A program made the position numbers and the translations under genes. DNA of 64,000 bases from Candidatus Methylomirabilia bacterium (GTDB lineage Bacteria; Methylomirabilota; Methylomirabilia; Rokubacteriales; CSP1-6): NCBI GenBank assembly GCA_041492755.1, contig JBGPXN010000001.1, positions 37,261 to 101,260 on the forward strand, written 5' to 3'. Positions 4,619 to 47,385 of this stretch are shown one piece after another. Positions within the stretch are counted from its first letter, which is position 1, and each line of letters begins with the position of its first letter. Below the pieces are notes generated by a model. The model was given only the letters and a program-made list of their open reading frames with translations. It did no database searches and had not been told where the DNA came from.

Positions 4619-4695
4619 TGTCGAGGAGCGCCCCGGCTCCGCCGGGGTGCTGCCGAGAGCTGGGGGGTGTGGGGGGCCATGTCTGGGCCCCCCAC
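4619..4695. repeat. REP-like composite palindromic element, copy A (12-bp GC hairpin plus G-rich palindrome)
   Basis: gtcgaggagcgccccggctccgccggggtgctgccgagagc + tggggggtgtggggggccatgtctgggcccccc, directly after the stop of the 4696..5028 gene. Same family as copies B-E. Confidence 0.7.
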
Positions 4696-5028
4696 CTAGT
4701 GGGCGTCGGGCGTCTTGTTGGCCCCCTTCACCCCCGGGTCGTAGCGCAGGCGCTCCACGGGCTTGCCGCCCAGGATGTGGGACTTCAAGATCTCGGGCAG
4801 GTCGCTCTCCTGCACGCCGTGGTACCAGACGTCGTCGGGATAGACGACGATCATCGGCCCGTGGCCGCACTGCGAGAAGCAGCCGGCCTTGTTGACGCGG
4901 ACGTCGGTCTTGAGCCCGGCCTTGACGGCTTCTCCCCGCAGATACTTCACGTACTCCTCGACGTTGCCGCGGGTCGGGCAGTCCTCCCCGCTCGTGCAGA
5001 CGAAGACGTGCGTCTTGTACTGGCCCAT
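4696..5028 (-). CDS. Thioredoxin-like [2Fe-2S] ferredoxin family protein
   Basis: CTSGEDCPTRG ... CFSQCGHGP Cys motifs. ATGA overlap with the ispG stop. Confidence 0.6.
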   Translation of the reverse strand: MGQYKTHVFVCTSGEDCPTRGNVEEYVKYLRGEAVKAGLKTDVRVNKAGCFSQCGHGPMIVVYPDDVWYHGVQESDLPEILKSHILGGKPVERLRYDPGVKGANKTPDAH

Positions 5029-6122
5029 CAGGCGTTGACCTCCGTCCCCTGCGCCGCCCGGCGCTCGGCGATGAATTTGTCGACCTCCTCGCGCATCGCC
5101 TGCACGATCCCGCTCTCGGGCACCTTGCGGATCACCTCACCGTGCTTGAAGATCAACCCGATCCCCTTCCCGCCCGCGACGCCGATGTCGGCCACCCGCG
5201 CCTCGCCGGGACCGTTGACTTCACATCCCATCACCGCGATGTGGATCTCTTCGTTGAGGCCCTTGAACTCGTCTTCCACTTCGCGGGCGAGCTTGACGAG
5301 GTCGACGTCGGCGCGGCCGCACGACGGGCAGGCGACGAAGGTGAGGCCGCCGCGACGCAGGCCGAGCGCCTTGAGGATGTCGATGCCGACGCGGACTTCT
5401 TCGGTGGGGTCGGCGGACAGGGACACGCGAATCGTGTCGCCGATGCCCTGGGAGAGGAGCGCGCCGAGGCCGACCGCGGACTTGATGGTGCCCACGCCGG
5501 GCGTGCCGGCCTCGGTGACGCCGAGATGGAACGGATAGTCCACCTGGTCGGCGAGCATCCGGTACGCCTCGATCATCATGGACGGATCGGACGCCTTGAG
5601 GGAGATCTTCATCTCCGGATAGTCACACTCTTCGAGGATCCGGATGTGTCGCAGCCCCGACTCCACCATCCCCTTCGCGCTGGGGCCGTTGTACTTCGCG
5701 AGCAGATCCTTCTCCAGCGAGCCCGCGTTGACGCCGATGCGGATGGGGATCTTGCGGTCCTTGGCGAGGTTGACGACCTCCATCACGAACGGCTTGCCGC
5801 CGATGTTGCCCGGGTTGAGGCGGAGACCGTCCACACCCTGCTGGAGCGCGATGAGGGCCAGCTTGTAGTTGAAGTGGATGTCGGCCACCAGCGGGATGCG
5901 GATCTGCTTCTTGATCTCGCCGAGCTTCTCGGCGGCCTCGCGCACGGGCACCGCGCAGCGCACGACGTCGCACCCGGCCGCCTCCAGCGACCAGATCTCG
6001 AGCAGCGTCGCTTCCACGTTCCGCGTGTCCGTCTTGGTCATGGACTGCACGGTGATGGGCGCGTCACCGCCGATCTTGACGTTGCCGATCTGGATCTGCC
6101 GTGTTCTCCGCCGTTCGGTCAT
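5028..6122 (-). CDS. ispG: 4-hydroxy-3-methylbut-2-en-1-yl diphosphate synthase (flavodoxin)
   Basis: MTERRRTRQIQIGNVKIGGDAPITVQSMTKTDT...VACPSCGR...MGCEVNGPGE. The track N-extension is not coding. Confidence 0.9.
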   Translation of the reverse strand: MTERRRTRQIQIGNVKIGGDAPITVQSMTKTDTRNVEATLLEIWSLEAAGCDVVRCAVPVREAAEKLGEIKKQIRIPLVADIHFNYKLALIALQQGVDGLRLNPGNIGGKPFVMEVVNLAKDRKIPIRIGVNAGSLEKDLLAKYNGPSAKGMVESGLRHIRILEECDYPEMKISLKASDPSMMIEAYRMLADQVDYPFHLGVTEAGTPGVGTIKSAVGLGALLSQGIGDTIRVSLSADPTEEVRVGIDILKALGLRRGGLTFVACPSCGRADVDLVKLAREVEDEFKGLNEEIHIAVMGCEVNGPGEARVADIGVAGGKGIGLIFKHGEVIRKVPESGIVQAMREEVDKFIAERRAAQGTEVNA

Positions 6123-6133
6123 GTCACCCGTCC

Positions 6134-7497
6134 CTATCGAAAAAAGCGAAACGCGTCGATGCGCACGAGGTCGTTGTAGAGCGCATAGACCATGAGCAGC
6201 ATGAGGAGCACGAAGCCGAGCTGCTGGGCGGCCTCCCGCTTCTTGAGCGAGAGCGGCCGGCCCCGGATGCCTTCGATGACGAAGAAGAAGAGGTGGCCGC
6301 CGTCCAGCATGGGGACGGGCAGCAGATTCAGCACCGCGAGGTTCACGCTGATGATCGCGGTGAAGAGCGCCAGTGAGGCGGCGCCTTCTTTGGCCTGGCG
6401 CCCGGCTTCGGCGGCGATCTGGATGGGGCCGCCGATGTTCGAGCGGTCGATGGTCCCCCACACGACCTTCCACAGGCCCTTCACGGTGAGGACGGTCATG
6501 TCCCACGTCTTGACCGCGCCGTACGCGATGGCCTGGGGCAGTGGATACGGCTCGTAGCTCACCGTCTTCGTCACGATGCCGACGCCGATCCGACCGACTT
6601 CAGTCTCGCCCGTCGGCGTCTTTTCCTTCACGACGATCGCCGTCACCGGCACCGTCAGCGGGCGGCCGTCACGCTCGATGGTGATCTCGAACGTCTGACC
6701 GCCGCGCTTCTGGATCGCCTGCATCAGGTCCTCGGGCGTGAACACGGGTTGTCCGGCCACCGCCTTCACGACGTCGCCCGGCTTCAGTCCGGCCTTGTCG
6801 GCGGGTGATCCCGGGTTCACGGAGCCGATCTGCGGCGTGAGCTGCGGGCCGGCGCCGATCTCCCACGTTTCGCGGGCCTCCTTGAAGATGAGATCGCGCA
6901 CGACGGTGAGACGCGGCTCGACCGTCACCGGCTGGGTCGCTCCGGCGGCGCGGGCGATCATCAGCGACAGCGGCTGGCCGGTGCTCGAGGTCAGCGCCCG
7001 CTCGAGATCTTCCCAGTACGCGACGGGCCTGCCGTCCACCGCCACCACCCTGTCGCCGGTGCGGAGTCCGGCGGCCGCCGCCGGGCTGTCCTCGGTCACA
7101 CGTCCGATCACGGGGGCCCACACCGGCCGGCCGGCGGTGGCGAGGACGCCCATGAAGATGACGGCGGCCAGCACGAAGTTCATCCCCGGCCCGGCAAAGA
7201 CGATGAGGAACCGCATCCAGAGCGGCTTCAGCGCGAACGCCTTGGACGGATCCCACGGCATCGGCGCACCGCCCTCGAGCGGATTCTCCTCGCCCAGCAT
7301 CTTCACGTAGCCGCCCATGGGAATGACGGACAGGCAGTACTCGGTCTCCTGGCCGCGCCAGCGCAGCAACACGGGACCGAAACCGATCGAGAAGCGCTCC
7401 ACACCGACCCCACACCACCGCGCGACGATGAAGTGACCGAGCTCGTGGATGAGGATGAGAATTCCGATGACGACGACGAAAGAAACCACCGTGGTCA
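6134..7497 (-). CDS. rseP: RIP metalloprotease RseP (site-2 protease)
   Basis: HELGHF zinc motif, two PDZ-like segments, C-terminal LDGGHL. GTG start overlaps the dxr TGA (GTGA). Confidence 0.85.
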
Positions 7498-10905: not shown

Positions 10906-12249
<1,344 letters not shown>

Positions 12250-23821: not shown

Positions 23822-25333
<1,512 letters not shown>

Positions 25334-28265: not shown

Positions 28266-28465
28266 GCGCGGGCCGCCGCGCGCGAGATCAGAGCCCGCGA
28301 ACGAATCGCGGCATCAAGGAACGCCCGGGCTTTGCCGGGGCGTTTCCGAGCGCGAGGCGTAGGTTGGGCGTCACGTCGGGGCGTCGAGGGCCGTCCGTCG
28401 AGGGCCGTCCCGGGTTTCCCGGGACGGCTCCGAGCGCAGGGGGGGGCCATGTCGGGGCCCCCCAC
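28266..28465. repeat. REP-like composite element, copy B (two GC hairpins plus G-rich palindrome)
   Basis: aacgcccgggctttgccggggcgtt ... ggccgtcccgggtttcccgggacggc ... ctccgagcgcag + gggggggccatgtcggggcccccc. Fills the whole gap between the two ferritin-like genes. Confidence 0.7.
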
Positions 28466-29230: not shown

Positions 29231-29239
29231 TATAGGGCC

Positions 29240-30121: not shown

Positions 30122-30143
30122 CAGCAGATCTCGCCCTCGCCGC

Positions 30144-31124: not shown

Positions 31125-31163
31125 CGGTCAGACGAAATCCATTGGTCGGTCGACGAGATCCAT

Positions 31164-33754: not shown

Positions 33755-33790
33755 CAGCGCGTCACGCGGACCGTCGGGGCCATCGGCGCC

Positions 33791-34543: not shown

Positions 34544-34800
34544 TCAGTACGCAGTTCCCGGACCCCGGGGCAGGTTCGGCCCACCCCGGCGCCCGCGTCG
34601 CGGACGCAGGCTCAGAGCCCGCGAATCAAGGAGCGCCCCGGCTTCGCCGGGACGCTGCCAAGCGTATCGGGGTCGAGGAGCGCCCCGGCTTCGCCGGGAC
34701 GCTGCCGAGCGCGTCGGGGTCGAGGAGCGCCCCGGCTTCGCCGGGGCGCTGCCGAGCGTATGGGGGGTATGGGGGGCCATGTCGGGGCCCCCCCATCCAA
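34544..34800. repeat. REP-like composite element, copy C (three tandem hairpin units plus G-rich palindrome)
   Basis: 3 x ~46-bp unit ggggtcgaggagcgccccggcttcgccggg(a/g)cgctgccgagcg, then tatggggggtatggggggccatgtcggggccccccc. Lies between the livK-like stop and the livG-like start. Confidence 0.8.
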
Positions 34801-35994: not shown

Positions 35995-36025
35995 GGGGAA
36001 CACCTCCAGGACGAAGTGGGCGAAA

Positions 36026-37234
36026 TTATACCGCGTCGTCCCCGGCGGCAGGGCGTTCCGGAGACGGGCGCGAGCGGCGGCGGAGCAACGCCGCCGGCAC
36101 CACGGTCGTCTCGCCGAAGCGCTGCGCGAGGGCATCGACGGCACGGGCGAGGCGCTCGCGGCGCAGGACGGAGGGATCGAGCAGCGGCAACTGCCCGCTG
36201 GCCTCCTCCTGAAGCCGTGACACGGACACCCCGATGAGGCGGATGGGCTGATCCAGCCGCTCACGGGCGAGGAGGCCTGCGGCGCGGCGGAACACCTCCA
36301 GGCCGTCCTGAGTCGGATCGCCGCTGTGCGCCCGGGTGATCGTGGTGAAGTCGGCGAAGCGGAGCTTGAGCGTCACCCGCCCACCCGCCAGCCGCTGCGC
36401 TCGCAGCTGCCGCCCGACGCGCTCGGCGTGTTCGCGCAGCACACGATGCAGGCGCTCGAGGTCTCGCGTGTCCGTCCCGAACGTCGTCTCGGCGCCGATC
36501 GACTTGGGCGCGGACACGGGATCCACGGAACGATCGTCGCGGCCGAAGGCGAGGTCGTGCAGATCGGCGCCGTGCTCGCCGAAACGTTGCACGAGCGAGG
36601 CTCGCGGAATCCGCTGGAGCTGGCCGATGGTGGCCACGCCGAGCGTGGCCAGCGCGTCGGCCATCACCCGGCCCACGCCCCACAGACGCTCCACCGGCAA
36701 CGGGGCCAGGAACGCGGCCTCCGTGCCGGGCGGCACCACGACGAGGCCGTCCGGCTTGCGCAGGTCCGAGGCGACTTTCGCCACGAACTTGTTCGCGGCA
36801 AGGCCGGCCGACGCCGTCAGCCCCGTCTCGTCACGAATGCGGGTCTTGACCCGCGCCACCGCGCGCGGGGGATCGCCGAAGAGCGGCTCGGTGCCGGTAA
36901 GATCGAGGAAGGCTTCGTCCACCGACACCGGTTCGACGAGGGGCGAGAAGTCGGCGAGGATCGCCATCACCTGATGCGACGCCTGCTGGTACCTGTCCAT
37001 GTCGACGGGCAGGAAGATCGCGTGCGGACAGAGTCGCGCCGCCTTGCCGATCGGCATCGCCGACCGCACGCCATACCGCCGCGCCTCGTACGAGGCGGCC
37101 GACACGACCCCACGCCCGCGCGGATTGGCGCCAACGATCACCGGATACCCCCGCAGCTCCGGCCGATCACGCTGCTCGACGGACGCATAAAACGCATCCA
37201 TGTCCACATGCGCGATCGCCCGCGGCCCCGACAT
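36026..37234 (-). CDS. dinB: DNA polymerase IV
   Basis: IAHVDMDAFYASVEQRDRPELRGYPVIVG...SIDEAFLDLT... Confidence 0.9.
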   Translation of the reverse strand: MSGPRAIAHVDMDAFYASVEQRDRPELRGYPVIVGANPRGRGVVSAASYEARRYGVRSAMPIGKAARLCPHAIFLPVDMDRYQQASHQVMAILADFSPLVEPVSVDEAFLDLTGTEPLFGDPPRAVARVKTRIRDETGLTASAGLAANKFVAKVASDLRKPDGLVVVPPGTEAAFLAPLPVERLWGVGRVMADALATLGVATIGQLQRIPRASLVQRFGEHGADLHDLAFGRDDRSVDPVSAPKSIGAETTFGTDTRDLERLHRVLREHAERVGRQLRAQRLAGGRVTLKLRFADFTTITRAHSGDPTQDGLEVFRRAAGLLARERLDQPIRLIGVSVSRLQEEASGQLPLLDPSVLRRERLARAVDALAQRFGETTVVPAALLRRRSRPSPERPAAGDDAV

Positions 37235-37458
37235 GTGAGCTTAGGCCGGGCCTGGACTGTCGACGAGCGACGAGCGGGAGCCGGGCGGGTGGCGCAGGGT
37301 AGACTCCCGCAGGGACGGCGGAGTGGGACCCCCGAAGCCTCTCCGCCGCTCGCAGGGCGGCGGTTTGAGGCGAGTGGGTGACGGAGCCGGCCCTGCGGGA
37401 GTCTGCCCTGCGACAGCACCCGCCCCCCTCGCGCTCATGACGTCACGGACAATCCGGG

Positions 37459-38037
37459 CTACGCGGTCGAGAGTCCGATGTCGGGAGCGACAGAAGAGAG
37501 CGCGGCGACTACGAACGTGATGTGCTGGTCGAGGTCGACGCCGAGCTCGGAAGCGCCGCGATAGACGTCGTCGCGATTGACGGTCCGGGCGAACGCCCGG
37601 TCCTTGAGCTTCTTGCGGACGGACGCCGGCTCGAGCCCGGTGATGACCCGTCCCGGGCGGACGAGCGCGCAGGCGTGGACGAAGCCGGTGAGCTCGTCAC
37701 AGGCGTAGAGCGCGCGGTCGAGCAGGCTCACGCGCGGCATGCCGGAGTAGTCGGCGTGGGCCAGGATCGCGTAAATGACGTCGGCGGGCACGCCGCGGCC
37801 GGCCAGGATCTCGGCGCCCTTCAGGGGATGGTGCGGCGCGCGCGGGTGCATCTCGTAGTCGAAGTCGTGGAGCATGCCGGCGACGCCCCACCGCTCGGGG
37901 TCCTCGCCGTACTGCCGTGCGTAGGCGCGCATGGAGGCCTCGACCGCGCGCGCGTGCTTGCGGAGGCCGTCACCCTTGGTGAACTCGGTCAGGATCGCCC
38001 ATGCATGGTCGCGGTCGACCATGGCGACCGTCGCCAC
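37459..38037 (-). CDS. HD-domain metal-dependent phosphohydrolase
   Basis: HARAVEASM...MLHDFDY...LAHADYSG (H..HD..H..D pattern). GTG start 2 nt after the upstream small gene's TGA. Confidence 0.6.
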   Translation of the reverse strand: MATVAMVDRDHAWAILTEFTKGDGLRKHARAVEASMRAYARQYGEDPERWGVAGMLHDFDYEMHPRAPHHPLKGAEILAGRGVPADVIYAILAHADYSGMPRVSLLDRALYACDELTGFVHACALVRPGRVITGLEPASVRKKLKDRAFARTVNRDDVYRGASELGVDLDQHITFVVAALSSVAPDIGLSTA

Positions 38038-38038
38038 C

Positions 38039-38218
38039 TCAGGCGCGCCGAGTCTCCCGCTGGCGCCATTTGTCGATGGACTTCTTGGAGAAGACCCAGT
38101 GGCCGTTGAGCTCGAGGCAGGGGATGCGCCGTTCGGCCGCCATCACGCTCAGCGCGCGCTCGTCCATGGCCAGGTATACCGACGCTTCCTTCACGCTCAT
38201 CACGTCCTTCGGGTTCAC
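38039..38218 (-). CDS. Small helix-turn-helix DNA-binding protein (excisionase/MerR-like HTH_17 family); absent from the ORF track
   Basis: Minus-strand translation [62 protein letters not shown] start overlaps the cysE TGA (GTGA). Confidence 0.5.
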
Positions 38219-38892
38219 TCGGTGTCCTCCTTGACCTGGTCTCGATCCACCACCTTGCGGAGCGCCTGCACCTCCGCTTCCAGCGACTGCAGCCGGTCCA
38301 CCAGTTGCTCGAGGGCGCGGCTCACCGGGTCGGGCAAGTCGGTCATGTTCAGGTCGATGCCGCCCGTCACCCGCTGGCCGTCGCGGTATGTTACCCGCCC
38401 CGGCACACCGACGACAACAGAGTTGGGGGGCACGTCGCGCACGACGACCGAGCCGGCGCCGATGCGGCTGCCGTCACCGATGGTGAGGGCGCCGATGACC
38501 TTGGCGCCCGCGCCGACGACCACGTTGTCTCCGAGGGTGGGGTGGCGCTTCTCCCGCTTGAGGCTCGTGCCTCCGAGCGTCACGCCCTGGAGCAGCGTCA
38601 CGTTGTCGCCGACCTCGGCCGTCTCTCCGATCACCACGCCCATGCCGTGGTCGATGAACAGCCCGCGCCCGAGGCGCGCGGCCGGGTGGATCTCGATGCC
38701 AGTCGCGAAGCGCGAGACGTGGGACAGGAACCGGGCGAGGGTGGTCCAGCCGGCGTGCCAGCAGCGATGCGCGAGGCGGTGGAGCGCAAGGGCGTGCACG
38801 CCCGGATAGCAGCAGAGGACTTCGAACCGCGAGCGCGCGGCCGGGTCGCGCTCGAGGACGGTCTGGATGTCGGCACGGAGGGCGTCAAACAC
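38215..38892 (-). CDS. cysE: Serine O-acetyltransferase
   Basis: Hexapeptide repeats, [31 protein letters not shown]... Confidence 0.85.
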
Positions 38893-39265
38893 CGGGCGTT
38901 CTCCGGCGCAGACAATCGAGCGCCGCCGCCCGCACGGCGCCCGCCGCCACCTCTGCGGCGTGCTTGCGGTCCTCGGGCAGCCCCCCGAGCGCCTGCTCGA
39001 TCGTTTCCGCTTTCACCTCGACCAGCTCCTCGACCGTCCGGCCCTGGAGCAGCTCGCTCGCGACGCTGGCGGCGGCAATGGTGGGCCCGCAGCCGTACGT
39101 CTGGAACCGGATCTCGGCCACGCGACCGTCGCGCACCCGCAGGAAGAAGCGGGCAAGATCGCCGCAACCGTCGAACTGGTCCTCCCCGATGCCATCGGCA
39201 TCGCGCAGCAGCCCGGCGTTGCGGGGATGGAGGAAGTGGTCCACCAGCGTCGGGCTGTATCTCAC
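38885..39265 (-). CDS. NifU/IscU-family Fe-S cluster scaffold (N-terminal-domain type)
   Basis: [18 protein letters not shown] ... DGCGD ... [13 protein letters not shown]. Confidence 0.7.
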
Positions 39266-39289
39266 GCCGCCTCGCTCACGCGCGGCGCC

Positions 39290-40447
39290 TCAGGCGGTGG
39301 CCACCGGCACGAGCTGGCGCAGCTTCCGCACGATCGGTTCCACGCATTCCACGACGTAGTCGATGTCCTCGGCGGTGGTGGAGCGCCCGAGCGAGAATCG
39401 CACGGCGCCCATCGCCCACTCGACCGGCACGCCCATCGCCACCAGCACGTACGACGGCTCGACGCTCCCCGCCGTGCAGGCCGAGCCGGCGGACACGGCG
39501 ACGCCCTTTAGATCCAGTCCGAGCACGATGGATTCCGACTCGACCCCGCGGAAGACGAGGTTGGCCGTGCCGGGCAGACGCTGGATTGGATGCCCGCTGA
39601 GGCGGACCTCCGGAACCCGGGCCCGGATCCCTTCCCACAACCGGTCGCGCAGCGCGCTCACCCGGGTGGCTTCTTCCGCCATGTCGCAACCGCGGATCTC
39701 CACGGCCCTGCCGAAGCCGACGATGCCCGCCACGTTTTCGGTGCCGGCACGGCGGCGACGCTCGTGCTCGCCGCCGTGCTGGATGGCCGCCATGCGGGTG
39801 CCCTTGCGGATGTAGAGGCCGGCCACGCCCTTGGGCCCGTAGACCTTGTGCGCGGAGAACGAGAGCGCATCGACGCCGAGATCGTCGACGTCGATCGGCA
39901 CCTTGCCGAACGTCTGCACGGCATCGACGTGGAACGGCACGCCGCGCGCGCGGGCGAGCGCGCCGACCGCCTTCACGGGCTGGATCGTCCCCACCTCGCT
40001 GTTCGCGTGCATGATGCTGATCGCGATCGTGTCGGGGCGCAGCGCCCGCTCGACGTCGGCCGCATCGACCATGCCGGACTCGTCCACGGGCAGATAGGTC
40101 ACGTCGAAGCCCTGCGCTTCGAGGGCCTGACACGTACGCAGGACCGCGTGATGCTCCACGCGCGAGGTGATCAGGTGACCGCGGCCGCGCGCCACCGCCA
40201 GTCCCTTGACCGCGAAGTTGTCGGATTCGGTGCCGCCCGAGGTGAAGACGATCTCGTCGGGCTTGACGCGTAGGAAGCGCGCGATGCGCTCGCGCGCGGT
40301 GTCCACGCCCTCGCGGGCGGCGCGGCCGAAGCCGTGAACGCTGGAGGGGTTGCCGAAAACGTCCGAGAAATACGGCAGCATCTCGGCCACGACGTCCGGG
40401 TGCACCGGGGTCGAGGCGTTGTGATCGAGGTACACACGCTGGCTCAT
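39290..40447 (-). CDS. nifS: Cysteine desulfurase (NifS/IscS class I)
   Basis: YLDHNASTPV...TSGGTESDN...SFSAHKVYGPKG...SAGSACTAGS. Confidence 0.85.
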   Translation of the reverse strand: MSQRVYLDHNASTPVHPDVVAEMLPYFSDVFGNPSSVHGFGRAAREGVDTARERIARFLRVKPDEIVFTSGGTESDNFAVKGLAVARGRGHLITSRVEHHAVLRTCQALEAQGFDVTYLPVDESGMVDAADVERALRPDTIAISIMHANSEVGTIQPVKAVGALARARGVPFHVDAVQTFGKVPIDVDDLGVDALSFSAHKVYGPKGVAGLYIRKGTRMAAIQHGGEHERRRRAGTENVAGIVGFGRAVEIRGCDMAEEATRVSALRDRLWEGIRARVPEVRLSGHPIQRLPGTANLVFRGVESESIVLGLDLKGVAVSAGSACTAGSVEPSYVLVAMGVPVEWAMGAVRFSLGRSTTAEDIDYVVECVEPIVRKLRQLVPVATA

Positions 40448-40488
40448 TTCTTGCCGTCTCCTTCCGCCGATGCTAGGCTCGGCTCGCG

Positions 40489-40815
40489 ATGAGCCTCTCC
40501 CGGAAAAAACTCGGCGTCCTTCTGTCCACCGGGCCGGAGCGGGCGGACAACGTCGCCACCACCGTCGGCCTCGGCGCCGCCACGCTCGACGCGGGCGCTG
40601 ACCTCTACCTCTATCTCATCGACGACGGCGTACGCGCCCTCGCCGATCCCCGCCTGCGCGCGCTGTCCGCGCGCGGGGCCAAGCTGTTCGTGTGCGCGTA
40701 CGGATGTCAGAAGCGGCGCATCCCGCTCGAGGACGCCGCCGACGTCACCTACTGCGGCCTCGTGGTGCTGACCGACCTCATCAACGCCACCGATCGCTTC
40801 ATCGCCCTGAATTAA
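40489..40815 (+). CDS. DsrE/TusD-like sulfur relay protein
   Basis: 108 aa, ...LYLYLIDDGV ... KLFVCAYGC (active-Cys region), DsrE/DsrF fold. Confidence 0.55.
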   Translation: MSLSRKKLGVLLSTGPERADNVATTVGLGAATLDAGADLYLYLIDDGVRALADPRLRALSARGAKLFVCAYGCQKRRIPLEDAADVTYCGLVVLTDLINATDRFIALN

Positions 40816-40993
40816 GGACATGGGGGACCCCGAGATGGCCCCCCATACTCCCCCTCCGCTCGGAGGCGTCCCGGGGAAGCCGTGGCGCTCGACCGATGTC
40901 ATCAGGGGCCCCGACATGGCCCCCGATTCCCCCAACGCTCGGAGCGCCCCGGCGAAGCCGTGGCGCTCCTCGAATGCCGTCTGAGGTCCTGCC
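40816..40993. repeat. REP-like composite element, copy D (two tandem composites, opposite + strand orientation but same orientation relative to transcription)
   Basis: (gggggaccccgagatggccccccatact + ccgctcggaggcgtcccggggaagccgtggcgctcgac) then (aggggccccgacatggcccccgattccccc + gctcggagcgccccggcgaagccgtggcgctcctcgaatgc). Sits between the dsrE-like stop and the dsrF-like GTG. Confidence 0.8.
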
Positions 40994-41347
40994 GTGCCCG
41001 AGTCGCCCGTCGTCGTCGTGATTGGCTGCGATCCGCGCGACAGCCACCGCGCCAACGAAGCCATGCGCATCGGGCTCGGGATCGTGGCCGGCGAGAACGA
41101 GGTCGTGTACGTGCTGCAGGGCGCGGCCACCCACCTGCTCGATGCCGACACCGACGACCTCGTGGACGGCGACGACATCGCGAAGTTCCGGGCTAACCTG
41201 CGCGATCTCGGCATCCCGTTCCACGTCGAGGACGCGGCCGTGCCCGACGATCCGGACTGGAACGCCGACGGCCACCCGGTCATCCGGGTGAGCCGCGAGC
41301 GCGCCGCCGAGCTCGTGGCCAGCGCGCGCCGAGTGCTGGTTTTCTGA
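40994..41347 (+). CDS. DsrF/TusC-like sulfur relay protein
   Basis: 117 aa DsrE/F-fold protein (VVVVIGCDPRD...VVYVLQGAATHLL). Confidence 0.5.
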   Translation: MPESPVVVVIGCDPRDSHRANEAMRIGLGIVAGENEVVYVLQGAATHLLDADTDDLVDGDDIAKFRANLRDLGIPFHVEDAAVPDDPDWNADGHPVIRVSRERAAELVASARRVLVF

Positions 41348-41574
41348 TGGCGAGCGCGCTCCACTTGCTCAAGGGCGCGGCCGGCGCCGAGCTCGCGGTC
41401 ACCGTCATCGCGCGACAGGTAGCGGCCGGCGATCGCGTCACCGTCGCGCTGCTGGAGGGCGCCCAGCGTCCCGAGCTGCCCGCGGGCGTCGCGGTCCACC
41501 GCGTGCCCGAGGATCTGGCATATCCACGGCTGCTGGAGCTGATCTTCGCGAGCGACCACGTCGTGACCTGGTAG
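41347..41574 (+). CDS. DsrH/TusB-like sulfur relay protein
   Basis: 75 aa, C-terminus ...LAYPRLLELIFASDHVVTW resembles the TusB/DsrH C-terminus. Start overlaps the upstream stop (ATGA). Confidence 0.5.
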   Translation: MASALHLLKGAAGAELAVTVIARQVAAGDRVTVALLEGAQRPELPAGVAVHRVPEDLAYPRLLELIFASDHVVTW

Positions 41575-41597
41575 CCGACCTGGGAGTGTCGCCCGCG

Positions 41598-41800
41598 TCA
41601 CCGGTTCCGGTACTCGTCCAGCCACGCCATCTGGATCGCCTCCAGCAGCTTCTCGTTGGAGACCTTCGGATCGTCCTTGAACTCCGGCAGCTCGGTGACG
41701 AACCGATGGAGGTCGGTGAAGCGCACGGTCAGCGGATCGGTGTCGGGATGGCGCTCGGAGAGCGCGATGCCGATATCCTCCGCGTCGCGCCACGTCATCA
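41598..41800 (-). CDS. iscX: Fe-S assembly protein IscX
   Basis: MTWRDAEDIGIALSERHPDTDPLTVRFTDLHRFVTELPEFKDDPKVSNEKLLEAIQMAWLDEYRNR. Shown in the track only as the tail of a longer alternate-start ORF. Confidence 0.7.
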
Positions 41801-42124
41801 CCTGGGAATCTCGACGACCACGTCGCCCCGGACCACGGCCTGGCAACCGAGGCGCGAGTGGATGGTGAGCCCTTCGGCCATGTCCAGCCGATCCTCCTCG
41901 TCGGGCTGCATCTCGGACAGGTTCTCCTCCCCCTCGCGCACCACCACGTGACACGTCGTGCAGGCGCAGGAGCCACCGCAGTTGTGCTCGAGGTGGATGT
42001 CGTTGGCGAGCGCGATGTCGAGCAGCGAGCCCGGCTGTCCGTGGTCGGCCAGCGGGTACTTCGAGTCGTCGACTTCCACCGTCTTGTTCAGCGGCAGGAA
42101 CGTCACCTTGTGGACTGCCATCAT
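41798..42124 (-). CDS. fdx: ISC-type [2Fe-2S] ferredoxin
   Basis: CGGSCACTTCHV...LGCQ adrenodoxin-like motif. Confidence 0.85.
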   Translation of the reverse strand: MMAVHKVTFLPLNKTVEVDDSKYPLADHGQPGSLLDIALANDIHLEHNCGGSCACTTCHVVVREGEENLSEMQPDEEDRLDMAEGLTIHSRLGCQAVVRGDVVVEIPR

Positions 42125-43995
42125 CCTGACTCCATGATCTCGTCCGCACGCTTGCTGGCGAGCGCGCCGCGCAGGGCGGCGTCCATCATCCGTTCGGCCA
42201 GCGGCTCGGTCGCGCGGTTCAATTCCGTCGTCCGGTCCCGAATGGCGTCCCGGTCGGTGCCCGCGCGCGCGGCCGTCAGCGCGGCCGCCGCGGCTTCCAC
42301 GCGGGCCCGCTCCTTCGGGCTCACCAGATCACCGGCCTGACGCAGGGCCCGGCCGACGTGGGTGAGCACGGTCTCGGCCTCGTTGCGCACCTCGATGAGC
42401 ATCCGGGCTTCGACGTCGGCCTCCGCGTACTGGAACGACTCCTCCACCATCCGCTCCACGTCGCCTTCGCTGAGGCCATAGGTCGGCTTCACCTCGATGG
42501 AGGCGGCCTTACCCGTCCGCAGCTCCTTGGCGTGGACCTGCAGGATGCCGTTGGCGTCGATCAGGAACGTCACCTCGATCTTCGGCATGCCGGCCGGCAT
42601 CGGATCGATCCCGCGCAGCTCGAAGCGGGCCAGCGAGCGGTTGTCCTTGGCCAGCTCGCGCTCGCCCTGCAGCACGTGCATGTCGACCACCGTCTGCCCG
42701 TCCACCGACGTCGTGAACATCTCGCGGGCGCTGGTTGGGATCGTGGTGTTGCGCGGGATCAGCACGCTGACGATGCCCCCGAGCGTCTCGATTCCGAGCG
42801 AGAGCGGTGTCACGTCGAGCAGGAGCATGTCGGTGATGCCGCCGGCCAGGATCTGGGCCTGCACGGCCGCCCCCAGGGCAACGACCTCGTCGGGATTGAG
42901 CTGGCTGTGCGGCGTCTTGCCGAAGAGCTCTTCCACCCGACGGCGGACGAGCGGCACCCGTGTGGAGCCGCCCACCAGCACGACCTCGTCGATCTGGGCG
43001 GTGACGAGCCCGGCGTCGGCGAGCGCCATGCGGCAGGGGCCGAGCGTCTTCCGCACCAGCGACTCCAGGAGACGCTCGAGATCGGCCCGCGTGATCTCCC
43101 GCACGTACGTGAAGTCCTCGAACGGAATCGTGAGGGTCGTGCGCGACTCGGCGCTCAGGCGGATCTTCGCCGCTTCGGCGGCCAGACGAAGCTCCTGGAT
43201 GGCTTCGCTGTCGCGCGCGAGGTCCACCGGGCGGCAGGCCAACTCGGCATGGTGGCGGGCCTGGATGTCTTCCAACAACCAGAGCGCGATGACGCGGTCG
43301 AAGTCGTCGCCGCCGAGGTGGGTATCACCGTTGGTGGCGAGCACTTCGAAAATCCCGTCCTTGATCCGGAGGATCGAGATGTCGAACGTCCCGCCCCCCA
43401 GATCGTAGACGGCCACGAGCCCTTCCTGGCGCCGGTGCAGGCCGTAGGCAAGTGACGCCGCGGTCGGCTCGTTCACGATCCGGACGACGTCGAGCCCCGC
43501 GATGCGGCCGGCATCGCGCGTGGCCTGGCGCTGGCTATCGTTGAAGTAGGCCGGCACCGTGACGACGGCCTGCTCCACCGGTTCGCCGAAGTGCGCCTCG
43601 GCCCGCTCCTTGAGCGCGCGGAGCACGATCGCCGACACTTCGGGCGGCGTGACCTGCCGGTCCCCGACGTCGATCCGCACCGTGCCCTCGGCCGGAGCCA
43701 CCGTGAAGGGCAAATACCGCAGCTCGTCCTTGACGTCCTCGTAGCCACGTCCCATCAGGCGCTTGACCGAATAGACCGTCGCGCGCGGGCGGCGCACAAG
43801 CTGGCGCCGCGCCGCCTCGCCAACCAGGACGCCGTCCGGGGTGAAGGCGACCACGGACGGGAGCAGCACACGGCCGTCGGCGCCAGCGATGACGCGGGCC
43901 AGGCCGGTCGCTTGATCGAAGTAGGCGACCAGGCTGTTGGTCGTACCGAGGTCAATGCCGATGATGCGTGCCATGTCCGATCGTGTCCGCATCAC
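42121..43995 (-). CDS. hscA: Fe-S protein assembly chaperone HscA (Hsp70 family)
   Basis: [16 protein letters not shown] ... DLGGGTFD ... The start may be the internal MARIIG (43974). Confidence 0.9.
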
Positions 43996-44545
43996 CGAGT
44001 GCCTCCGTGAGGTCCTCGATGACGGTTCGCAGATAGGCCCGCATGGCCAGCCCGCGCTTCAGCGCGCCCAGGACATCCGCGCGATCGGCAGGCGGCGCCG
44101 CGTCCCACGCCTCGCTCAGCGGTCCGGCCAGGCGCCGCTCTTCCTGCCGAAAGCGATCGAGCAGGCGCTCGCGCTGGCCGGCGAGGTCGGCGCGCGCGCC
44201 GTCGTCGAGGCCACCCGCCTTGGCGTCCGCGAGCGCTTCCTGGATCTCGAACATCTCGGCCAGCAGCTCGGGCGGCGCGGGCGGACGCGCAGCCGCGCCC
44301 TCGCGGGTCTCGCGTCCCTCTTCGAGACGGACGAGGTAGTCGGCGCGCGCGACGGGATCACGCAGCGTCCGGTAGGCGGCGTTCAGCCGGGCGGACGCCT
44401 CCAGCGCCTCGGCCTGCGCGTCCACCGACGCGCCGTGATGGAAGTCCGGGTGGTGCCGGCGCGACCGCTCGTAGAACTGTCCCCGCAGCGCCTCGGTATC
44501 GATCCGCAGGTGCCGTGGCAGCCCGAACACTTCGAAATGATCCAT
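43952..44545 (-). CDS. hscB: Co-chaperone HscB (J-domain)
   Basis: MDHFEVFGLPRHLRIDTEALRGQFYERSRRHHPD (HPD motif). Confidence 0.8.
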   Translation of the reverse strand: MDHFEVFGLPRHLRIDTEALRGQFYERSRRHHPDFHHGASVDAQAEALEASARLNAAYRTLRDPVARADYLVRLEEGRETREGAAARPPAPPELLAEMFEIQEALADAKAGGLDDGARADLAGQRERLLDRFRQEERRLAGPLSEAWDAAPPADRADVLGALKRGLAMRAYLRTVIEDLTEALGDADTIGHGTHHRH

Positions 44546-44559
44546 GCCTCTCCTGTTCC

Positions 44560-44587
44560 CCCAAAATGCGAACGGGCCCTCCGTCGG
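44560..44587 (-). promoter_or_regulatory. Intercistronic stem-loop between iscA and hscB (possible attenuator or processing site)
   Basis: mRNA GAACGGGCCC-GACGGA-GGGCCCGUUC followed by GCAUUUUGGGGG, then SD AGGAGAGG and the hscB AUG. Confidence 0.4.
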
Positions 44588-44617
44588 GCCCGTTCTCGCT
44601 CGCGCGCTGGAACCCGG

Positions 44618-44947
44618 CTACGCCGAGAAGGACGTGCCACAGCCGCAGGAGCTTTTCGCCTGCGGATTGACGAAGGTGAACCCTCCGGTCAGCCCCTGCT
44701 GCACGTAGTCGAGGGTGGTGCCGGCGAGGTAGAGGTAGCTCTTCTTGTCGATGACCACCTTCACCCCGTCGATCTCGAACTCCTTGTCGTGCGGCCCCAT
44801 CTCGGTGTCGAACTCCAGCGAGTACGACATCCCCGAGCAGCCGCCGCCCTTGACCCCCATGCGAAGGAACACGTTGTCGCCCAGGTTCTGGGCGCTCTTG
44901 AGCTCCTTCACCTGCTTGCTCGCCGCTTCGGACAGTGTCAACGCCAT
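44618..44947 (-). CDS. iscA: Fe-S cluster insertion protein IscA (HesB family)
   Basis: ...GGGCSGMSY... C-terminal CGCGTSF. Confidence 0.85.
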   Translation of the reverse strand: MALTLSEAASKQVKELKSAQNLGDNVFLRMGVKGGGCSGMSYSLEFDTEMGPHDKEFEIDGVKVVIDKKSYLYLAGTTLDYVQQGLTGGFTFVNPQAKSSCGCGTSFSA

Positions 44948-44974
44948 GGACCCGGTCTCCTCCTTTGCGCTCGC

Positions 44975-45376
44975 TTACTTCGTGCCGGCCGCCACGCCGC
45001 TCCGGTCCTTGTAGTCGGCGAGGGCCGCCTTGATGGCATCCTCGGCCAGCACCGAGCAGTGGATCTTCACCGGCGGCAGCTTCAGCTCGTTCACGATGTC
45101 CGTGTTCTTGATCTTGGCCGCGTCGTCGACGGTCTTGCCCTTGAGCCACTCGGTGGCGAGGCTGGACGACGCGATGGCGCTCCCGCAGCCGAACGTCTTG
45201 AATTTGGCGTCCTCGATGACGCCGGTCTCGACGTTGACCTTGATCTGGAGCTTCATGACGTCGCCGCACTCCGGCGCGCCCACCAGCCCCGTGCCCACAC
45301 CGGGGGCGTCCTTCGGGAACGACCCCACGTTGCGCGGGTTGTTGTAGTGATCGACGACCTTATCGCTGTACGCCAT
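44975..45376 (-). CDS. iscU: Fe-S cluster assembly scaffold IscU
   Basis: GAPECGDVMKLQIKV ... FGCGSAIASSS ... LPPVKIHCSVLAEDAIKAA. Confidence 0.9.
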   Translation of the reverse strand: MAYSDKVVDHYNNPRNVGSFPKDAPGVGTGLVGAPECGDVMKLQIKVNVETGVIEDAKFKTFGCGSAIASSSLATEWLKGKTVDDAAKIKNTDIVNELKLPPVKIHCSVLAEDAIKAALADYKDRSGVAAGTK

Positions 45377-45387
45377 CGAAGCCCCCC

Positions 45388-46614
45388 TTACTCACCCTTC
45401 CACTGGATGGACTTGATATCCACGCCTTCTTTGGCCAGCTCGTAGAGCGGCGACATGTCGCGCAGCCGCTCGATCACCTCGACGGTGCGCTTGCCGACGA
45501 ACTCGACCTCTTCCTCCGTGTTGAAGCGGTGCAGGCTGAACCGGATCGACGAGTGCGCCAGCTCCGTGCTCGCCCCCAGCGCCGCGATCACGTACGAGGG
45601 CTCGAGCGTGGACGACGTGCAGGCCGAGCCGGAGCTCAGCGCCGCCTCCTTGTTGAGCCCCATCAGGACCGACTCGCCCTCCACGTAGGCGAACGAGATG
45701 TTCAGGTTCTGCGGCAGCCGGCGCTCCGGATGTCCATTGAGGAACGCCTCCTCGACCTGCGACAGAATCAAACCTTGAAGACGATCGCGCAGCTTGCTGA
45801 GCCGCGCCGCCTCTTCGACCATCGTCTCCTGGCAGATCTCAGCCGCCCGACCAAAGCCCACCACCAGCGGCACCGGCAGCGTGCCCGACCGCATCCCGCG
45901 CTCGTGGCCCCCGCCGTCGATCATCGGCGCCAGCCGCACCCGCGGCCCCTTGCGTCGCACGTAGAGCGCGCCGACGCCCTTGGGCCCATACATGAGATGC
46001 GCGGTACAGGTCAGGAGATCGATGCCCATGGCCTCCACGTCGATCGGGATCTTGCCCGCGGCCTGGGTGGCGTCGGCGTGGAAAATGACGCCCTTCTCCT
46101 TCGCGAGCTTCCCGATGGCGGCGACGTCCTGGATCGTCCCGATCTCGTTGTTGGCGAACATGATGGAAACCAGGATGGTCTTCGGCGTCAGCGCCTTGGC
46201 GATCTCGTCGACGTCCACCAGCCCGTCGGGGCGAACCGGAACGTAGGTCACCTCGACGCCCTGGCGCTCGAGTCGCTTGCAGGTATCCAGCGTCGCGCGC
46301 TGCTCGATCGCGGTGGTGACGATGTGGTTGCCCTTCTCGCGGTACATCTCGGCCACGCCCTTGAGCGCCAGATTGATCGACTCCGTCCCGCCCGAGGTGA
46401 AGATGACCTCTTTGGGATCGCGAGCACCGATCAGCTTGGCGATCTTCGCGCGCGCGGCATCCACCGCGCCCTCCGCCTCCCACCCGAACGGGTGGTTGCG
46501 GCTGGCCGGGTGGCCAAACTTCTCGGTGAAGTAGGGCAGCATCGCCTCCAGCACCCGCGGGTCGACCGGCGTCGTCGACTGGGCGTCCATGAAGATCGGA
46601 AACTTCACGGCCAT
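45388..46614 (-). CDS. iscS: Cysteine desulfurase IscS
   Basis: IFMDAQSTTPVDPRVLEAM ... TSGGTESINL ... SSGSACTSSTLEPSYV. Confidence 0.9.
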   Translation of the reverse strand: MAVKFPIFMDAQSTTPVDPRVLEAMLPYFTEKFGHPASRNHPFGWEAEGAVDAARAKIAKLIGARDPKEVIFTSGGTESINLALKGVAEMYREKGNHIVTTAIEQRATLDTCKRLERQGVEVTYVPVRPDGLVDVDEIAKALTPKTILVSIMFANNEIGTIQDVAAIGKLAKEKGVIFHADATQAAGKIPIDVEAMGIDLLTCTAHLMYGPKGVGALYVRRKGPRVRLAPMIDGGGHERGMRSGTLPVPLVVGFGRAAEICQETMVEEAARLSKLRDRLQGLILSQVEEAFLNGHPERRLPQNLNISFAYVEGESVLMGLNKEAALSSGSACTSSTLEPSYVIAALGASTELAHSSIRFSLHRFNTEEEVEFVGKRTVEVIERLRDMSPLYELAKEGVDIKSIQWKGE

Positions 46615-46627
46615 CGGGTCCGTCTCC

Positions 46628-47062
46628 TTACCGTCGAATCGCCATCAGGTCGGGCACGTCGTCGCCGACCAGCTCGGCCAAGCTCATGCTGTCCAGCATC
46701 TGCGTGATCGCCACTTGTAGTTTCTGCACGGGGCGCCGCAGGTTGCACCGCGCCATCTGCGGACACTCGCTCTCACTCTCCATGCACTCGACGATGTTGA
46801 TCGGCCCCTCGAGTGCCCGCACCACCTGCCCCACCGTGATGTCTGCCGGATGCCGGGCGAGCGTGTATCCCCCTTTCGGCCCGTTCTGACTCACGATGAG
46901 TCGCTGCTTGGCCAACCGCTGGAGGATCTTGGCGAGGAGCTCCGAAGGAATCCCGAAGGTCTCGGCGATCCGCTTCACGCTGACAGACCCGTCCTCTTCG
47001 TGGACGGCGATGAAATGAATCGCCATCAGCCCGTAATCCGCCCGTTTCGTGAACCTCAGCAC
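46628..47062 (-). CDS. iscR: Rrf2-family transcriptional regulator IscR
   Basis: GTG-initiated MLRFTKRADYGLMAIHFIA..., cluster-ligand region CMESESECPQMARC. Confidence 0.85.
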   Translation of the reverse strand: MLRFTKRADYGLMAIHFIAVHEEDGSVSVKRIAETFGIPSELLAKILQRLAKQRLIVSQNGPKGGYTLARHPADITVGQVVRALEGPINIVECMESESECPQMARCNLRRPVQKLQVAITQMLDSMSLAELVGDDVPDLMAIRR

Positions 47063-47118
47063 CCCGTCCCGTCCTCCGCCCGATCCATCACCGATCAGTA
47101 TATCCGACCGTCTTGATC

Positions 47119-47133
47119 GGCGACTAATTCAGT
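47119..47133. promoter_or_regulatory. Predicted IscR type-1 operator upstream of iscR
   Basis: cGACTAATTCAGTCg matches the IscR type-1 core GACT-RWWWY-AGTC, 57-71 bp upstream of the iscR start. It overlaps a putative -35 for a minus-strand TATACT -10 (47098-47103). Confidence 0.5.
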
Positions 47134-47264
47134 CGGAGTCTGCCACCAGGAACACCGCATGTCAAGATCGCGAATTGCCAAGCCAATGTAGGCGAAGAGG
47201 GACCAAGGGCGGACGAACCGAATCGAGACGTCGCCCGAGCAGGACCATCGGAAGGGCGGCAGCC

Positions 47265-47385
47265 ACTCCGGGGAAACCGGGGCCCCGGAGTCAGAGGGTG
47301 TGAGGGAATTCGAGGGTGTGAGAAGAATTCGAGGAGCGCCACGGCTCCGCCGGGGCGCTCCGAGCGCAGGGGGGGTAGGGGGTAC
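47265..47385. repeat. REP-like composite element, copy E (degenerate G-rich part)
   Basis: ccggggaaaccgggg hairpin; direct repeat gagggtgtgagggaattc/gagggtgtgagaagaattc; gaggagcgccacggctccgccggggcgctccgagcgcag; gggggggtagggggtac. Located after the galT-like stop. Confidence 0.7.

Follow-up and report, generated by a model that had tools for sequence, protein, structure and literature searches.

What are the GC-rich inverted repeats that occupy five gene junctions in a 64,000-nucleotide stretch of a Candidatus Methylomirabilia bacterium (assembly GCA_041492755.1, contig JBGPXN010000001.1, positions 37,261 to 101,260; hereafter the window), and do they serve the messenger RNAs in which they lie or are they DNA elements with a biology of their own? 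A first-pass annotation of the window had described one two-part element, a G-rich palindrome followed by one or more hairpins, lying just past a stop codon between co-directional genes and always in the same polarity relative to transcription. It had preferred an RNA-level role, and had named as the alternative a mini-element resembling repetitive extragenic palindromic (REP) sequences. We find the alternative to be the better of these two readings: the five sites are probably copies of a lineage-specific, non-autonomous, insertional DNA repeat that resembles REPs and bacterial interspersed mosaic elements (BIMEs). The repeat is an insertion, placed in either orientation at gene ends where the spacer is very short or stop and start codons overlap; its unit number rises or falls after insertion by local tandem duplication and deletion, and its stems are maintained by compensatory change.

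That the same modular element is present at all five sites (A to E, Table 1) was borne out by palindrome, hairpin-core and profile matches. The palindrome GGGGGGCCATGTCGGGGCCCCCC (in its plus-strand form, with up to three mismatches allowed) has three matches on the plus strand and two on the minus strand, five in total at four sites, and the 26-nt hairpin core GAGCGCCCCGGCTTCGCCGGGGCGCT has six matches over four sites. The chance expectation is 0 for both, as none of 100 dinucleotide-preserving shuffles contained a match to the palindrome and shuffles gave no hairpin match. A profile built from 118 related copies and searched with nhmmer detected the five sites and no others across the 64 kb. 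The window has a G+C content of ~69% and matches contigs from metagenome-assembled genomes (MAGs) of uncultured Rokubacteria or 'Methylomirabilia' at ~99.9% identity.

The placement described in the first-pass annotation also held within the window. With genes called by a codon-statistics caller trained on the window's Pfam-confirmed genes, the gaps between stop codon and element at sites A-E are 2, 2, 7, 6 and 3 nt, all five flanking gene pairs are co-directional, and the polarity of the element relative to the genes is identical at all five. Because 56 of the ~64 called genes lie on the minus strand, four of these five orientations are not independent evidence, and given the 50:50 split found across the family (below), five of five in the same polarity has a two-sided p of only ~0.06. 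The short open reading frames (ORFs) carried by the repeats, already suspected of being spurious, receive no coding support from codon statistics.

We refer to the strand that reads GGGGGGCCCCGACATGG... as the top strand; at each of the five sites in the window, the mRNA has the sequence of this strand. When copies are aligned after being oriented on the palindrome, the modular consensus spans ~76 nt and, for the related copies, reads nnT-GGGGGGCCCCGACATGGCCCCCC-A.A-CCCCCC-aaCGCTCGG-AGCGCCCCGGC-gaa-GCCGTGGCGCT-CCTCGAt; individual units are ~76-100 nt long. The order of modules on the top strand is an AT-richer stretch, hairpin 1, a C-run and hairpin 2. The AT-richer left end comprises ~10 bases with a weak YYnWTnAnRT pattern. 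Hairpin 1, the G-rich palindrome, has a G/C stem of 9-10 bp, (N)T-GGGGGGCC-ccgacat-GGCCCCCC-A(N'), and is separated by five to seven C from hairpin 2, a 15-bp stem, CTCGG-AGCGCCCCGGC-gaa-GCCGTGGCGCT-CCTCGA, with a bulge and a conserved C.T mismatch that is kept at one position in more than half of the copies. To the right of hairpin 2 there is a weak signal over ~8 nt (TyyCsCG). The two ends of the unit are (N)T-GGGGGG... and ...CCTCGA(T), the other strand reading TCGAGG, CCGAGG or TAGAGG, and on direct reading the consensus is open in all six frames.

A subset of copies carries an optional third small hairpin, GCGATTCGTTCACGGGCTCTGA. This module, GCGATTCGTTC(A/G)CGGGCTCTGA, lies 3' of hairpin 2, forms the hairpin CCGCGA..TCGCGG and ends in TGA; it is present at window sites B and C and follows hairpin 2 in five of the related loci (L008, L014, L016, L044 and L065). 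The first-pass annotation makes no mention of it. A separate sub-family in L023, L043, L071, L084 and L090 (for example, at 2880-2898 of L023) consists of a variant palindrome, CGGGGGCCCAGACATGGCCCCCG, then CACTCCCCC, and lacks hairpin 2. It is always accompanied by a conserved left flank of ~26 nt, TTTACTTCTTCAAGGCyCTTCAkCTG, and may represent another composite that shares the palindrome.

Beyond the window, exact matches to a 19-nt core, scanned in one genome per species, were found at 113 or more loci in at least 45 species-level assemblies, with at least 22 loci in a single assembly (JACPCW). Forty-one of the 45 are labelled Rokubacteria, Rokuibacteriota or Methylomirabilota, and the core in the four others most likely sits on mis-binned contigs. 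Core-bearing contigs in MAGs of other phyla include L034 (Acidoferrum), L066 (Anaerolineaceae) and L087 (Binatia), and two more, L080 and L086, are labelled 'uncultured bacterium'; the flank of L066 is near-identical to that of L048, which belongs to a Methylomirabilia MAG. In an independent set of 80 loci (777 kb) orthologous to the nifS region of the window, fetched by protein and not by repeat, there are ~13 sites in both orientations. Compared with five sites in the 64-kb window, copy density thus varies at least 4-fold. A viral contig collection held no match to the element, and carriage by phages or plasmids was rejected on this ground; identity with a curated RNA family was likewise rejected, as Rfam 15 gave no match in the window at gathering thresholds and merely sub-threshold chance matches over site C. 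In a literature search, the core sequence appeared in no paper found, nor did we find a Rokubacteria paper describing such repeats, and the family is apparently new to the literature.

Placement, orientation and turnover

The strict polarity seen in the window is lost in a larger sample. We classified 133 sites in related loci by their flanking genes, using calls from our own codon-statistics caller, which was validated on the window and on homology-checked junctions only. Sites sense and antisense to two co-directional genes are equally frequent (36 each), convergent genes flank 24 sites and divergent genes 7, 23 fall inside a gene call (most of these are overruns of the caller, and a few are genuine in-frame intragenic copies), and 7 lack a flanking gene and are unclassifiable. 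Co-directional genes thus flank 72 of the 103 classifiably intergenic sites. Against a background of 667 co-directional, 87 convergent and 103 divergent gene pairs, convergent spacers are over-represented about twofold (24/103 sites versus 10% of gene pairs) and divergent spacers are under-represented (7/103). Single genomes hold both orientations (8 sense and 4 antisense copies in JACPCW, 2 and 4 in JACPDG), as do homology-checked junctions, and we therefore regard the polarity in the window as a small-sample effect. The first-pass annotation had itself named random orientation, or a lack of enrichment after stop codons, as arguing against a transcription-linked element; the orientation is indeed random, whereas the adjacency to gene ends proved very strong.

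Whichever way it faces, the element is tightly placed and takes up nearly all of the spacer; the median length of co-directional spacers in this genome is 14 nt. In sense copies, the palindrome lies 0-7 nt past the stop codon at most stop-facing sites. When a copy is antisense, it is the end with hairpin 2 that adjoins the stop codon; a distance of 5-27 nt separates its palindrome from the following start codon, and an intact Shine-Dalgarno sequence (AGGAGG) is often present in that interval. Sense and antisense copies alike conserve the loop sequence. Orientation is unrelated to the majority gene strand and to local GC skew: measured over 8 kb of the top strand, a weak proxy for replication direction, the skew is above zero at 57 sites and below zero at 61 (p=0.2), and a replication-linked orientation or mutation bias found no support in this proxy.

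Some copies lie in frame within genes or are translated as C-terminal tails: such copies are found in the P-type ATPase gene of L099 and in HscB of L050, L167, L172, L174 and L191. In L099 (3323-3438), two in-frame units, each with 13 nt of duplicated gene sequence, lie just upstream of the MVGDGINDAP motif; in L069 (6240-6334), three palindrome-only units of 36 nt lie inside a 2.3-kb ORF.

Orthologous junctions reveal the element as an insertion. At the dsrE-p117 junction (site D), 63 of 64 relatives lack it and have spacers of mostly 4-25 nt, typically TGA-nnnn-GTG. At the DUF455 junction (site B), the genes overlap or abut in 21 of 23 relatives (taTTGAgc, or TAG followed immediately by the next gene), and apart from the window the junction is filled solely in L188 and L189. 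The livK-livG spacer (site C) measures 41-79 nt in five relatives, two of which have apparent remnants of the element. Two additional filled/empty junction pairs were found among the related loci, and empty orthologous spacers overall range from -1 to 25 nt in most relatives. Conversely, at the hscB-hscA junction the window represents the empty state, its genes overlapping (by 23 nt, 43952-43974) as they do in most relatives, whereas five relatives carry a homology-checked antisense copy (L050 ~1340-1420, L167 6459-6535, L172 6588-6659, L174 6489-6660 and L191 6609-6684). These copies are read through as a C-terminal tail of HscB (...GGMGGH(I/V)GAPHQ*), the stop codon lying just past the palindrome. 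All five have the uncommon ...CCCTC variant of hairpin 2, which suggests a single old insertion followed by retention or repeated loss.

Because the available filled/empty pairs are 15-25% diverged, the insertion junctions are blurred, and the attempt to read exact insertion boundaries from them was abandoned. The idea that the element brings or targets TGA, prompted by left flanks of the type TTGA-CAT-G6 and by a partial duplication in L189, failed two controls: at start-facing flanks TGA (15/44) is about as common as its complement TCA (13/44), both being enriched over control, and stop codon usage beside the element (31 TGA, 12 TAG and 5 TAA) is that of the called genes in the related loci (564, 243 and 76).

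Copies continue to change after insertion. Site D, with two units in the window, has three in the ~99.9% identical strain represented by L001. At site B, two ~99.9% identical strains differ from the window by the absence of a 14-nt duplication, by one C of the C-run and by four single-nucleotide polymorphisms (SNPs), all within 200 nt, and the copy gains SNPs and indels faster than its flanks. In arrays of other genomes, 13-15 nt of flanking gene sequence are repeated with each unit, and arrays must thus grow by local tandem duplication and not by repeated insertion. In other samples, contigs break off within sites C and D. In five relatives (L150, L151, L155, L158 and L184), the dsrE-p117 spacer, in which site D lies in the window, contains two or three copies of an unrelated 18-nt tandem repeat, CGTGTCTGGCGGAGCCGG, and stop-proximal spacers therefore seem generally prone to the gain of GC-rich repeats in this lineage.

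Stem pairing and strand asymmetry

Both hairpins are maintained as paired structures. In a 96-copy alignment, 93% of the cells of the two-hairpin structure are paired, and changes on both sides are seen at 12 pairs overall and at 11 of the 15 pairs of hairpin 2. The covariation score is 0.140, compared with 0.048 for shuffles (0/500 reach 0.140), and slid controls did not exceed 0.042. Hairpin 1 does not vary in its core among copies, although this is in part a matter of ascertainment, since loci were fetched by exact match to the core. Its outermost pair does covary, being T-A, G-C or C-G at one layer; in the layer adjoining it, 71% of copies are paired versus 37% in shuffles (67% versus 29% in a second comparison). 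The corresponding RNA folds are very stable, at -30 to -55 kcal/mol per ~90 nt, with z-scores of -0.2 to -3.9, five of six being -2.2 or lower.

The imperfect pairs in these stems are distributed unevenly between the strands. Read on the top strand, non-Watson-Crick pairs comprise 47 A.C and 7 G.T cells (p=2e-8; the cells count copies and not independent mutational events), and all 11 non-tied stem positions lean towards A.C. The bias is equal in sense copies (17 versus 2) and antisense copies (18 versus 3), such that when the same pairs are counted on the transcribed strand there are 20 G.U and 20 A.C, and selection on mRNA pairing was rejected as the explanation. What reads as A.C on the top strand corresponds to a G.T wobble on its complement, the bottom strand (TCGAGGAGCGCC...GGGGGGCCATGTCGGGGCCCCCC), which is consistent with a folding advantage of the latter. 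Indeed, in 114 of 118 copies it is the bottom strand that folds more stably. Computed with DNA parameters, the mean for hairpin 2 is -15.8 kcal/mol on the bottom strand and -13.7 on the top, the bottom being favoured in every orientation class, and the three window copies tested give -31.5 versus -24.8, -31.9 versus -28.1 and -27.3 versus -21.8 kcal/mol.

This strand asymmetry is intrinsic to the element and independent of the direction of transcription. A mutation bias linked to transcription or replication is an unlikely cause, because element orientation is unrelated to GC skew or majority gene strand. We consider the asymmetry the strongest argument that the fold that matters is that of one DNA strand, or of a transcript of the element itself, and not that of the operon mRNA.

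Origin of the repeat and competing explanations

How might such an element spread? By analogy with REPs and IS200/IS605 insertion sequences, in which a hairpin with a short guide or tag is active on one strand (PMC6006769), the repeat may be propagated or maintained through a single-stranded DNA hairpin of one strand, which could be recognized by an HUH/Y1 enzyme (either a REP-associated tyrosine transposase, RAYT, or an IS200-like protein) or by another hairpin-specific protein. Its adjacency to stop codons would then be mainly survivorship, insertion being tolerated after a stop codon and before the next ribosome-binding site, a reading tied to the very short co-directional spacers of this genome. 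A more ambitious version is a good deal more speculative, and we offer it tentatively: a phylum-wide, vertically persistent single-stranded DNA 'replicator' with two different hairpins and a C-run, whose active bottom strand would be mobilized by a hairpin-specific enzyme of Rokubacteria, and which would prefer the stop/start junctions of translationally coupled genes, uncoupling operon genes, adding C-terminal tails and making strain-variable arrays. If this were true, it would constitute a REPIN-like system (a REP doublet forming hairpins) beyond the known GTAG/CGTC-RAYT systems, and one with real effects on how genes are expressed in an uncultured phylum.

Several observations weigh against an insertional REP-like repeat. 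Neither a Y...NP..AG motif (sought by regular expression) nor a homologue of E. coli RayT (sought with phmmer) was found in six-frame translations of the window and 193 related loci, which amount to 1.7 Mb or <1% of the genomes concerned, and Pfam scans of genes bracketed by inverted copies returned ordinary metabolic enzymes and no transposase; in so small a sample, this failure to find a nearby RAYT or IS200 transposase is a weak negative. Neither a clean target site nor a duplication of the target could be defined, and the 8-kb GC skew, a weak proxy, revealed no orientation bias relative to replication, whereas IS200/IS605-type elements do show one. Part of the folding-energy asymmetry arises from fixed features (the C.T versus A.G mismatch and the identity of the loop), and these could be recognition features rather than evidence of the folding strand; the dependence of the mismatch counts on copies, and of the site classes on our own gene caller, belongs here as well. 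Finally, REPs have been described as species-specific (PMC6006769), whereas at least 45 species share one identical core here, and the hscB-hscA copies look orthologous across diverged lineages. Both could instead reflect host-level selection or concerted evolution.

The RNA-level role preferred in the first-pass annotation supposes that the hairpins are kept in mRNA as intercistronic stabilizers, partial terminators or RNase barriers that set the expression ratios of operon genes, as for the malE-malF REP. The window taken by itself would recommend it: all five copies are sense, close behind a stop codon and between co-directional genes, the largest array lies between a gene for a periplasmic binding protein and genes for ABC ATPases, the RNA folds are very stable, and REPs in general are thought to be transcribed (PMC3733652). 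Yet once strict polarity is lost this role becomes unlikely, as sense and antisense copies are equally common, even within single genomes and at homology-checked junctions, and the loop is conserved whichever way the element faces. In addition, G.U and A.C are balanced on the transcribed strand, the mRNA strand of the window copies folds more weakly than its complement, no T-tract follows the hairpins, most orthologous junctions do without the element while keeping translational coupling, and the copy at site B changes faster than its surroundings. Termination as such fares worse. Enrichment between convergent genes and the GC-rich stems directly past stop codons might suggest terminators without a U-tract, or bidirectional terminators, of a high-GC organism. 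However, most classifiable sites lie between co-directional genes, several in stop/start overlaps of obviously co-transcribed genes (the liv ABC genes, hscB-hscA and the DUF455 operon), and some copies are in frame within genes. A terminator scan of 28000-47600 gave six terminator-like matches, none coinciding with an element, and hairpin 2 is followed by CCTCGA and GC-rich sequence in place of a T-run. An intrinsic terminator of the usual kind, a GC hairpin with a T/U run, was thus rejected, and the U-tract-less form is very improbable.

An alternative that would account for identity across species is a DNA site selected by the host, in which a conserved Rokubacteria protein (nucleoid-associated, gyrase- or IHF-like, or related to recombination or replication) binds the palindrome, with or without hairpin 2, as a duplex or cruciform. 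The function of such a site would not depend on its orientation relative to genes, the exact 19-mer includes the 7-nt loop, the hscB-hscA copies persist in diverged lineages with a common variant, and the BIMEs of E. coli bind integration host factor (IHF), gyrase and DNA polymerase I (mentioned in PMC6006769). Nevertheless, presence at orthologous sites is patchy, density differs several-fold among relatives, copies decay, become truncated and vary between strains, and covariation in the stems favours base pairing over the reading of half-sites in a duplex; moreover, the conservation of the core is partly ascertainment. We regard this explanation as quite unlikely. Two further candidates were dropped: integron attC sites, because GTTRRRY core sites are absent and the flanking genes are core operon genes, and uptake signals, because the density is far below that of DNA uptake sequences or uptake signal sequences (DUS/USS). 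On balance, an insertional REP/BIME-like repeat is the best-fitting account, in which any effect on mRNA in the window would be a by-product of stable hairpins and not the cause of the features of the family. Such by-products are possible, because the hairpins are very stable whichever way they face, and the best candidate (for example, for 3'-end protection) is the array that follows the liv binding-protein gene.

The closest likeness is to REPs, which occur in more than 80 species near the 3' ends of genes and between unidirectional and convergent ORFs, with termini that supply stop codons and with in-frame intragenic copies (Di Nocera et al., 2013; PMC3733652). The features by which REPs are broadly recognized, a covarying stem-loop and 3'-end placement with unidirectional and convergent enrichment and divergent depletion, are present here. 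Like the REPs and BIMEs of Enterobacteria and Pseudomonas, the element is a short GC-rich imperfect palindrome with a stem mismatch or bulge, dispersed in apparently many copies within ~20 nt of 3' gene ends, enriched in unidirectional and convergent spacers and rare in divergent ones (PMC3733652), occasionally overlapping a stop codon or inserted in frame, and forming composite arrays of strain-variable copy number. It differs in that each unit joins two unrelated hairpins and a C-run, head to tail, in a fixed composite, whereas a REP is one palindrome or alternating inverted copies, in that its core is common to many species, and in that no RAYT was seen. The ends of the consensus lack the unpaired GTAG or CGTC (TGTC/CCTC) tag at the palindrome end, and the family is therefore not a member of the GTAG or CGTC super-families.

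Other systems share parts of this picture. REPINs with their RAYTs (Bertels and Rainey; PMC3116915, PMC3337134) are likewise non-autonomous hairpin repeats that persist vertically and lie in both orientations relative to genes, and strand-specific recognition of a folded single strand is expected of them. A REPIN, however, is two inverted copies of the same REP that form one long hairpin, whereas the present unit has two different hairpins in direct order, arranged in head-to-tail arrays with periods of 47 or 78-100 nt; lacking such an inverted pair, it falls outside the REPINs, and the flanked single-copy RAYT gene that is the defining partner of REPINs was not among the sequences searched. 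Miniature elements derived from IS200/IS605 (palindrome-associated transposable elements, PATEs), together with IS608 and ISDra2, resemble the repeat in having two different subterminal hairpins, no terminal inverted repeats and top/bottom asymmetry (PMC6006769), and possibly in the scar-free presence/absence pattern at hscB-hscA. They differ in that the present element shows no conserved target tetra- or pentanucleotide, no orientation bias by the weak replication proxy and no TnpA in the 1.7 Mb. The left-end and right-end hairpins of IS608 resemble each other, whereas the two hairpins of the present element are dissimilar. Mycobacterial interspersed repetitive units (MIRUs) are reported to face the same way as the operon and to carry small ORFs that couple the flanking genes. 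As variable-number tandem repeats (VNTRs), they share with the present family tandem units of 40-100 nt inside operons of a high-GC organism, stop-start placement and strain-variable unit number, whereas the present family is hairpin-based and occurs in both orientations. Rickettsia palindromic elements and other intragenic REPs are similar in their open frames and their in-frame copies or C-terminal tails, but only a minority of the present copies are intragenic and there is no sequence relationship. A classical miniature inverted-repeat transposable element (MITE) was rejected: the two ends are unrelated and form no terminal inverted repeats, there is no fixed-length target-site duplication (the only candidate, ATGAG in L073, is explained by tandem duplication including the flank), and arrays arise by tandem duplication with 13-15 nt of flank.

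To a specialist, such a repeat is unsurprising in kind, and its interest, which is modest, lies in its architecture, phylum-wide conservation and strand asymmetry. It gives an uncultured, large-genome phylum its own REP-like family outside the two described tag super-families, and the A.C/G.T asymmetry provides a sequence-only handle on the active strand. In practical terms, the repeat explains spurious small ORF calls (for example, a 75-aa 'gene' on the repeat in L001) and contig breaks in Rokubacteria assemblies, such as those inside sites C and D, and it offers VNTR loci for strain typing. The lineage specificity of the 19-mer core is high enough for it to flag mis-binned contigs and serve as a check on binning. 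The element also marks places where translational coupling has been broken, as in the DUF455 operon, at dsrE and at hscB-hscA. If a mobilizing enzyme were found, the host-element relationship of the REPIN/RAYT type would be extended to a new phylum.

Features of the window

Table 1. Units of the repeat and their flanking genes in the window. Strand is that of the top strand of the element; matches to the palindrome GGGGGGCCATGTCGGGGCCCCCC and to the hairpin core GAGCGCCCCGGCTTCGCCGGGGCGCT are given with the strand of the match.
Feature	Position	Strand	Palindrome match	Hairpin-core match (start)	nhmmer E-value	Remarks
Site A, one full unit	4620-4694	-	4671-4693 (+)	4626 (+)	3.9e-15	model positions 3-76; C-run 4662-4667; hairpin 2 ~4621-4657
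Site A, flanks		-				110-aa ORF 4696-5028 (-) / proS 2903-4591 (-); TAG 4696-4698, 2 nt from palindrome
Site B, unit 1, full	28398-28465	-	28441-28463 (+), exact		2e-9	
Site B, unit 2, degenerate	28313-28382	-			3e-4	sole remnant a hairpin-2-like stem, GGAAACGCCCCGGC-aaa-GCCCGGGCGTTCC
Site B, third module	28288-28311	-				GCGATTCGTTCGCGGGCTCTGA; small hairpin CCGCGA..TCGCGG
Site B, flanks						DUF455 gene / 320-aa ORF, co-directional
Site C, full unit	34720-34794	-	34771-34793 (+)	34725 (+)	2.9e-17	palindrome, C-run, hairpin 2
Site C, hairpin-2-only unit	34673-34719	-		34678 (+)		tandem array of 47-nt period with the hairpin of the full unit
Site C, hairpin-2-only unit	34626-34672	-		34631 (+)		same array
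Site C, third module, short form	34612-34627	-				GATTCGCGGGCTCTGA
Site C, flanks						liv-type binding-protein gene 34801-35970 (-), directly upstream / ABC ATPase gene
Site D, unit 1, full	40820-40890	+	40822-40844 (-), 2 mismatches		2.5e-12	
Site D, unit 2, full	40902-40975	+	40903-40925 (-)	40943 (-)	1.2e-17	78-nt period relative to unit 1
Site D, flanks						DsrE-like gene, TAA 40813-40815, 6 nt upstream of unit 1 / 117-aa ORF from 40994
Site E, 5'-truncated unit	47327-47381	-		47334 (+)	1.9e-9	model positions 23-77
Site E, flanks						galT-like gene (stop codon 47386-47388, directly upstream) / Rrf2 regulator gene

Two of the sites depart from the consensus. In unit 1 of site B, hairpin 2 is diverged yet perfectly paired, GAGCCGTCCCGGG-aaa-CCCGGGACGGCCC, and is followed by the 14-nt duplication, GGACGGCCCTCGAC; the unit folds at -55.3 kcal/mol (z -3.9). 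At site E, the 5' half of the palindrome is lost and CCCCC-TA-CCCCCCC is what is left of palindrome and linker, while hairpin 2 is intact. Beside this unit lie a further GC hairpin, CTCCGGGG-aaaccgggg-CCCCGGAG (47266-47290), and a two-copy 19-nt tandem repeat at 47294-47330, GAGGGTGTGAG(G/A)(G/A)GAATTC, which duplicates the right-end junction of the element (GAATTCGAGG).

The window has other inverted repeats as well. A hairpin at 25346-25408 has 30-nt arms that are 90% complementary and a 3-nt loop (CGGCAGGGGGCCGAGGGGGTGCTTCGCTAA / TTCGCTACGCACCCCCTCGGCCCCCTGCCG); its sequence is unrelated to the repeat, and it follows closely on the one long gene of the plus strand (23879-25333), facing minus-strand genes. 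Upstream of a dinB-like gene (36026-37234, minus strand) is a 30-nt inverted repeat with its arms, 37290-37319 and 37386-37415, 66 nt apart. The window also contains two paralogous pairs of cysteine desulfurase and NifU-like genes, 6 kb apart (38885-40447 and 44975-46614), which account for two of the direct repeats detected in it. One pair is nifS/nifU-like, and the other is the iscS/iscU pair inside an iscR-iscSUA-hscBA-fdx cluster; between the two desulfurase pairs, on the opposite strand, sits a three-gene dsrE-like cluster.

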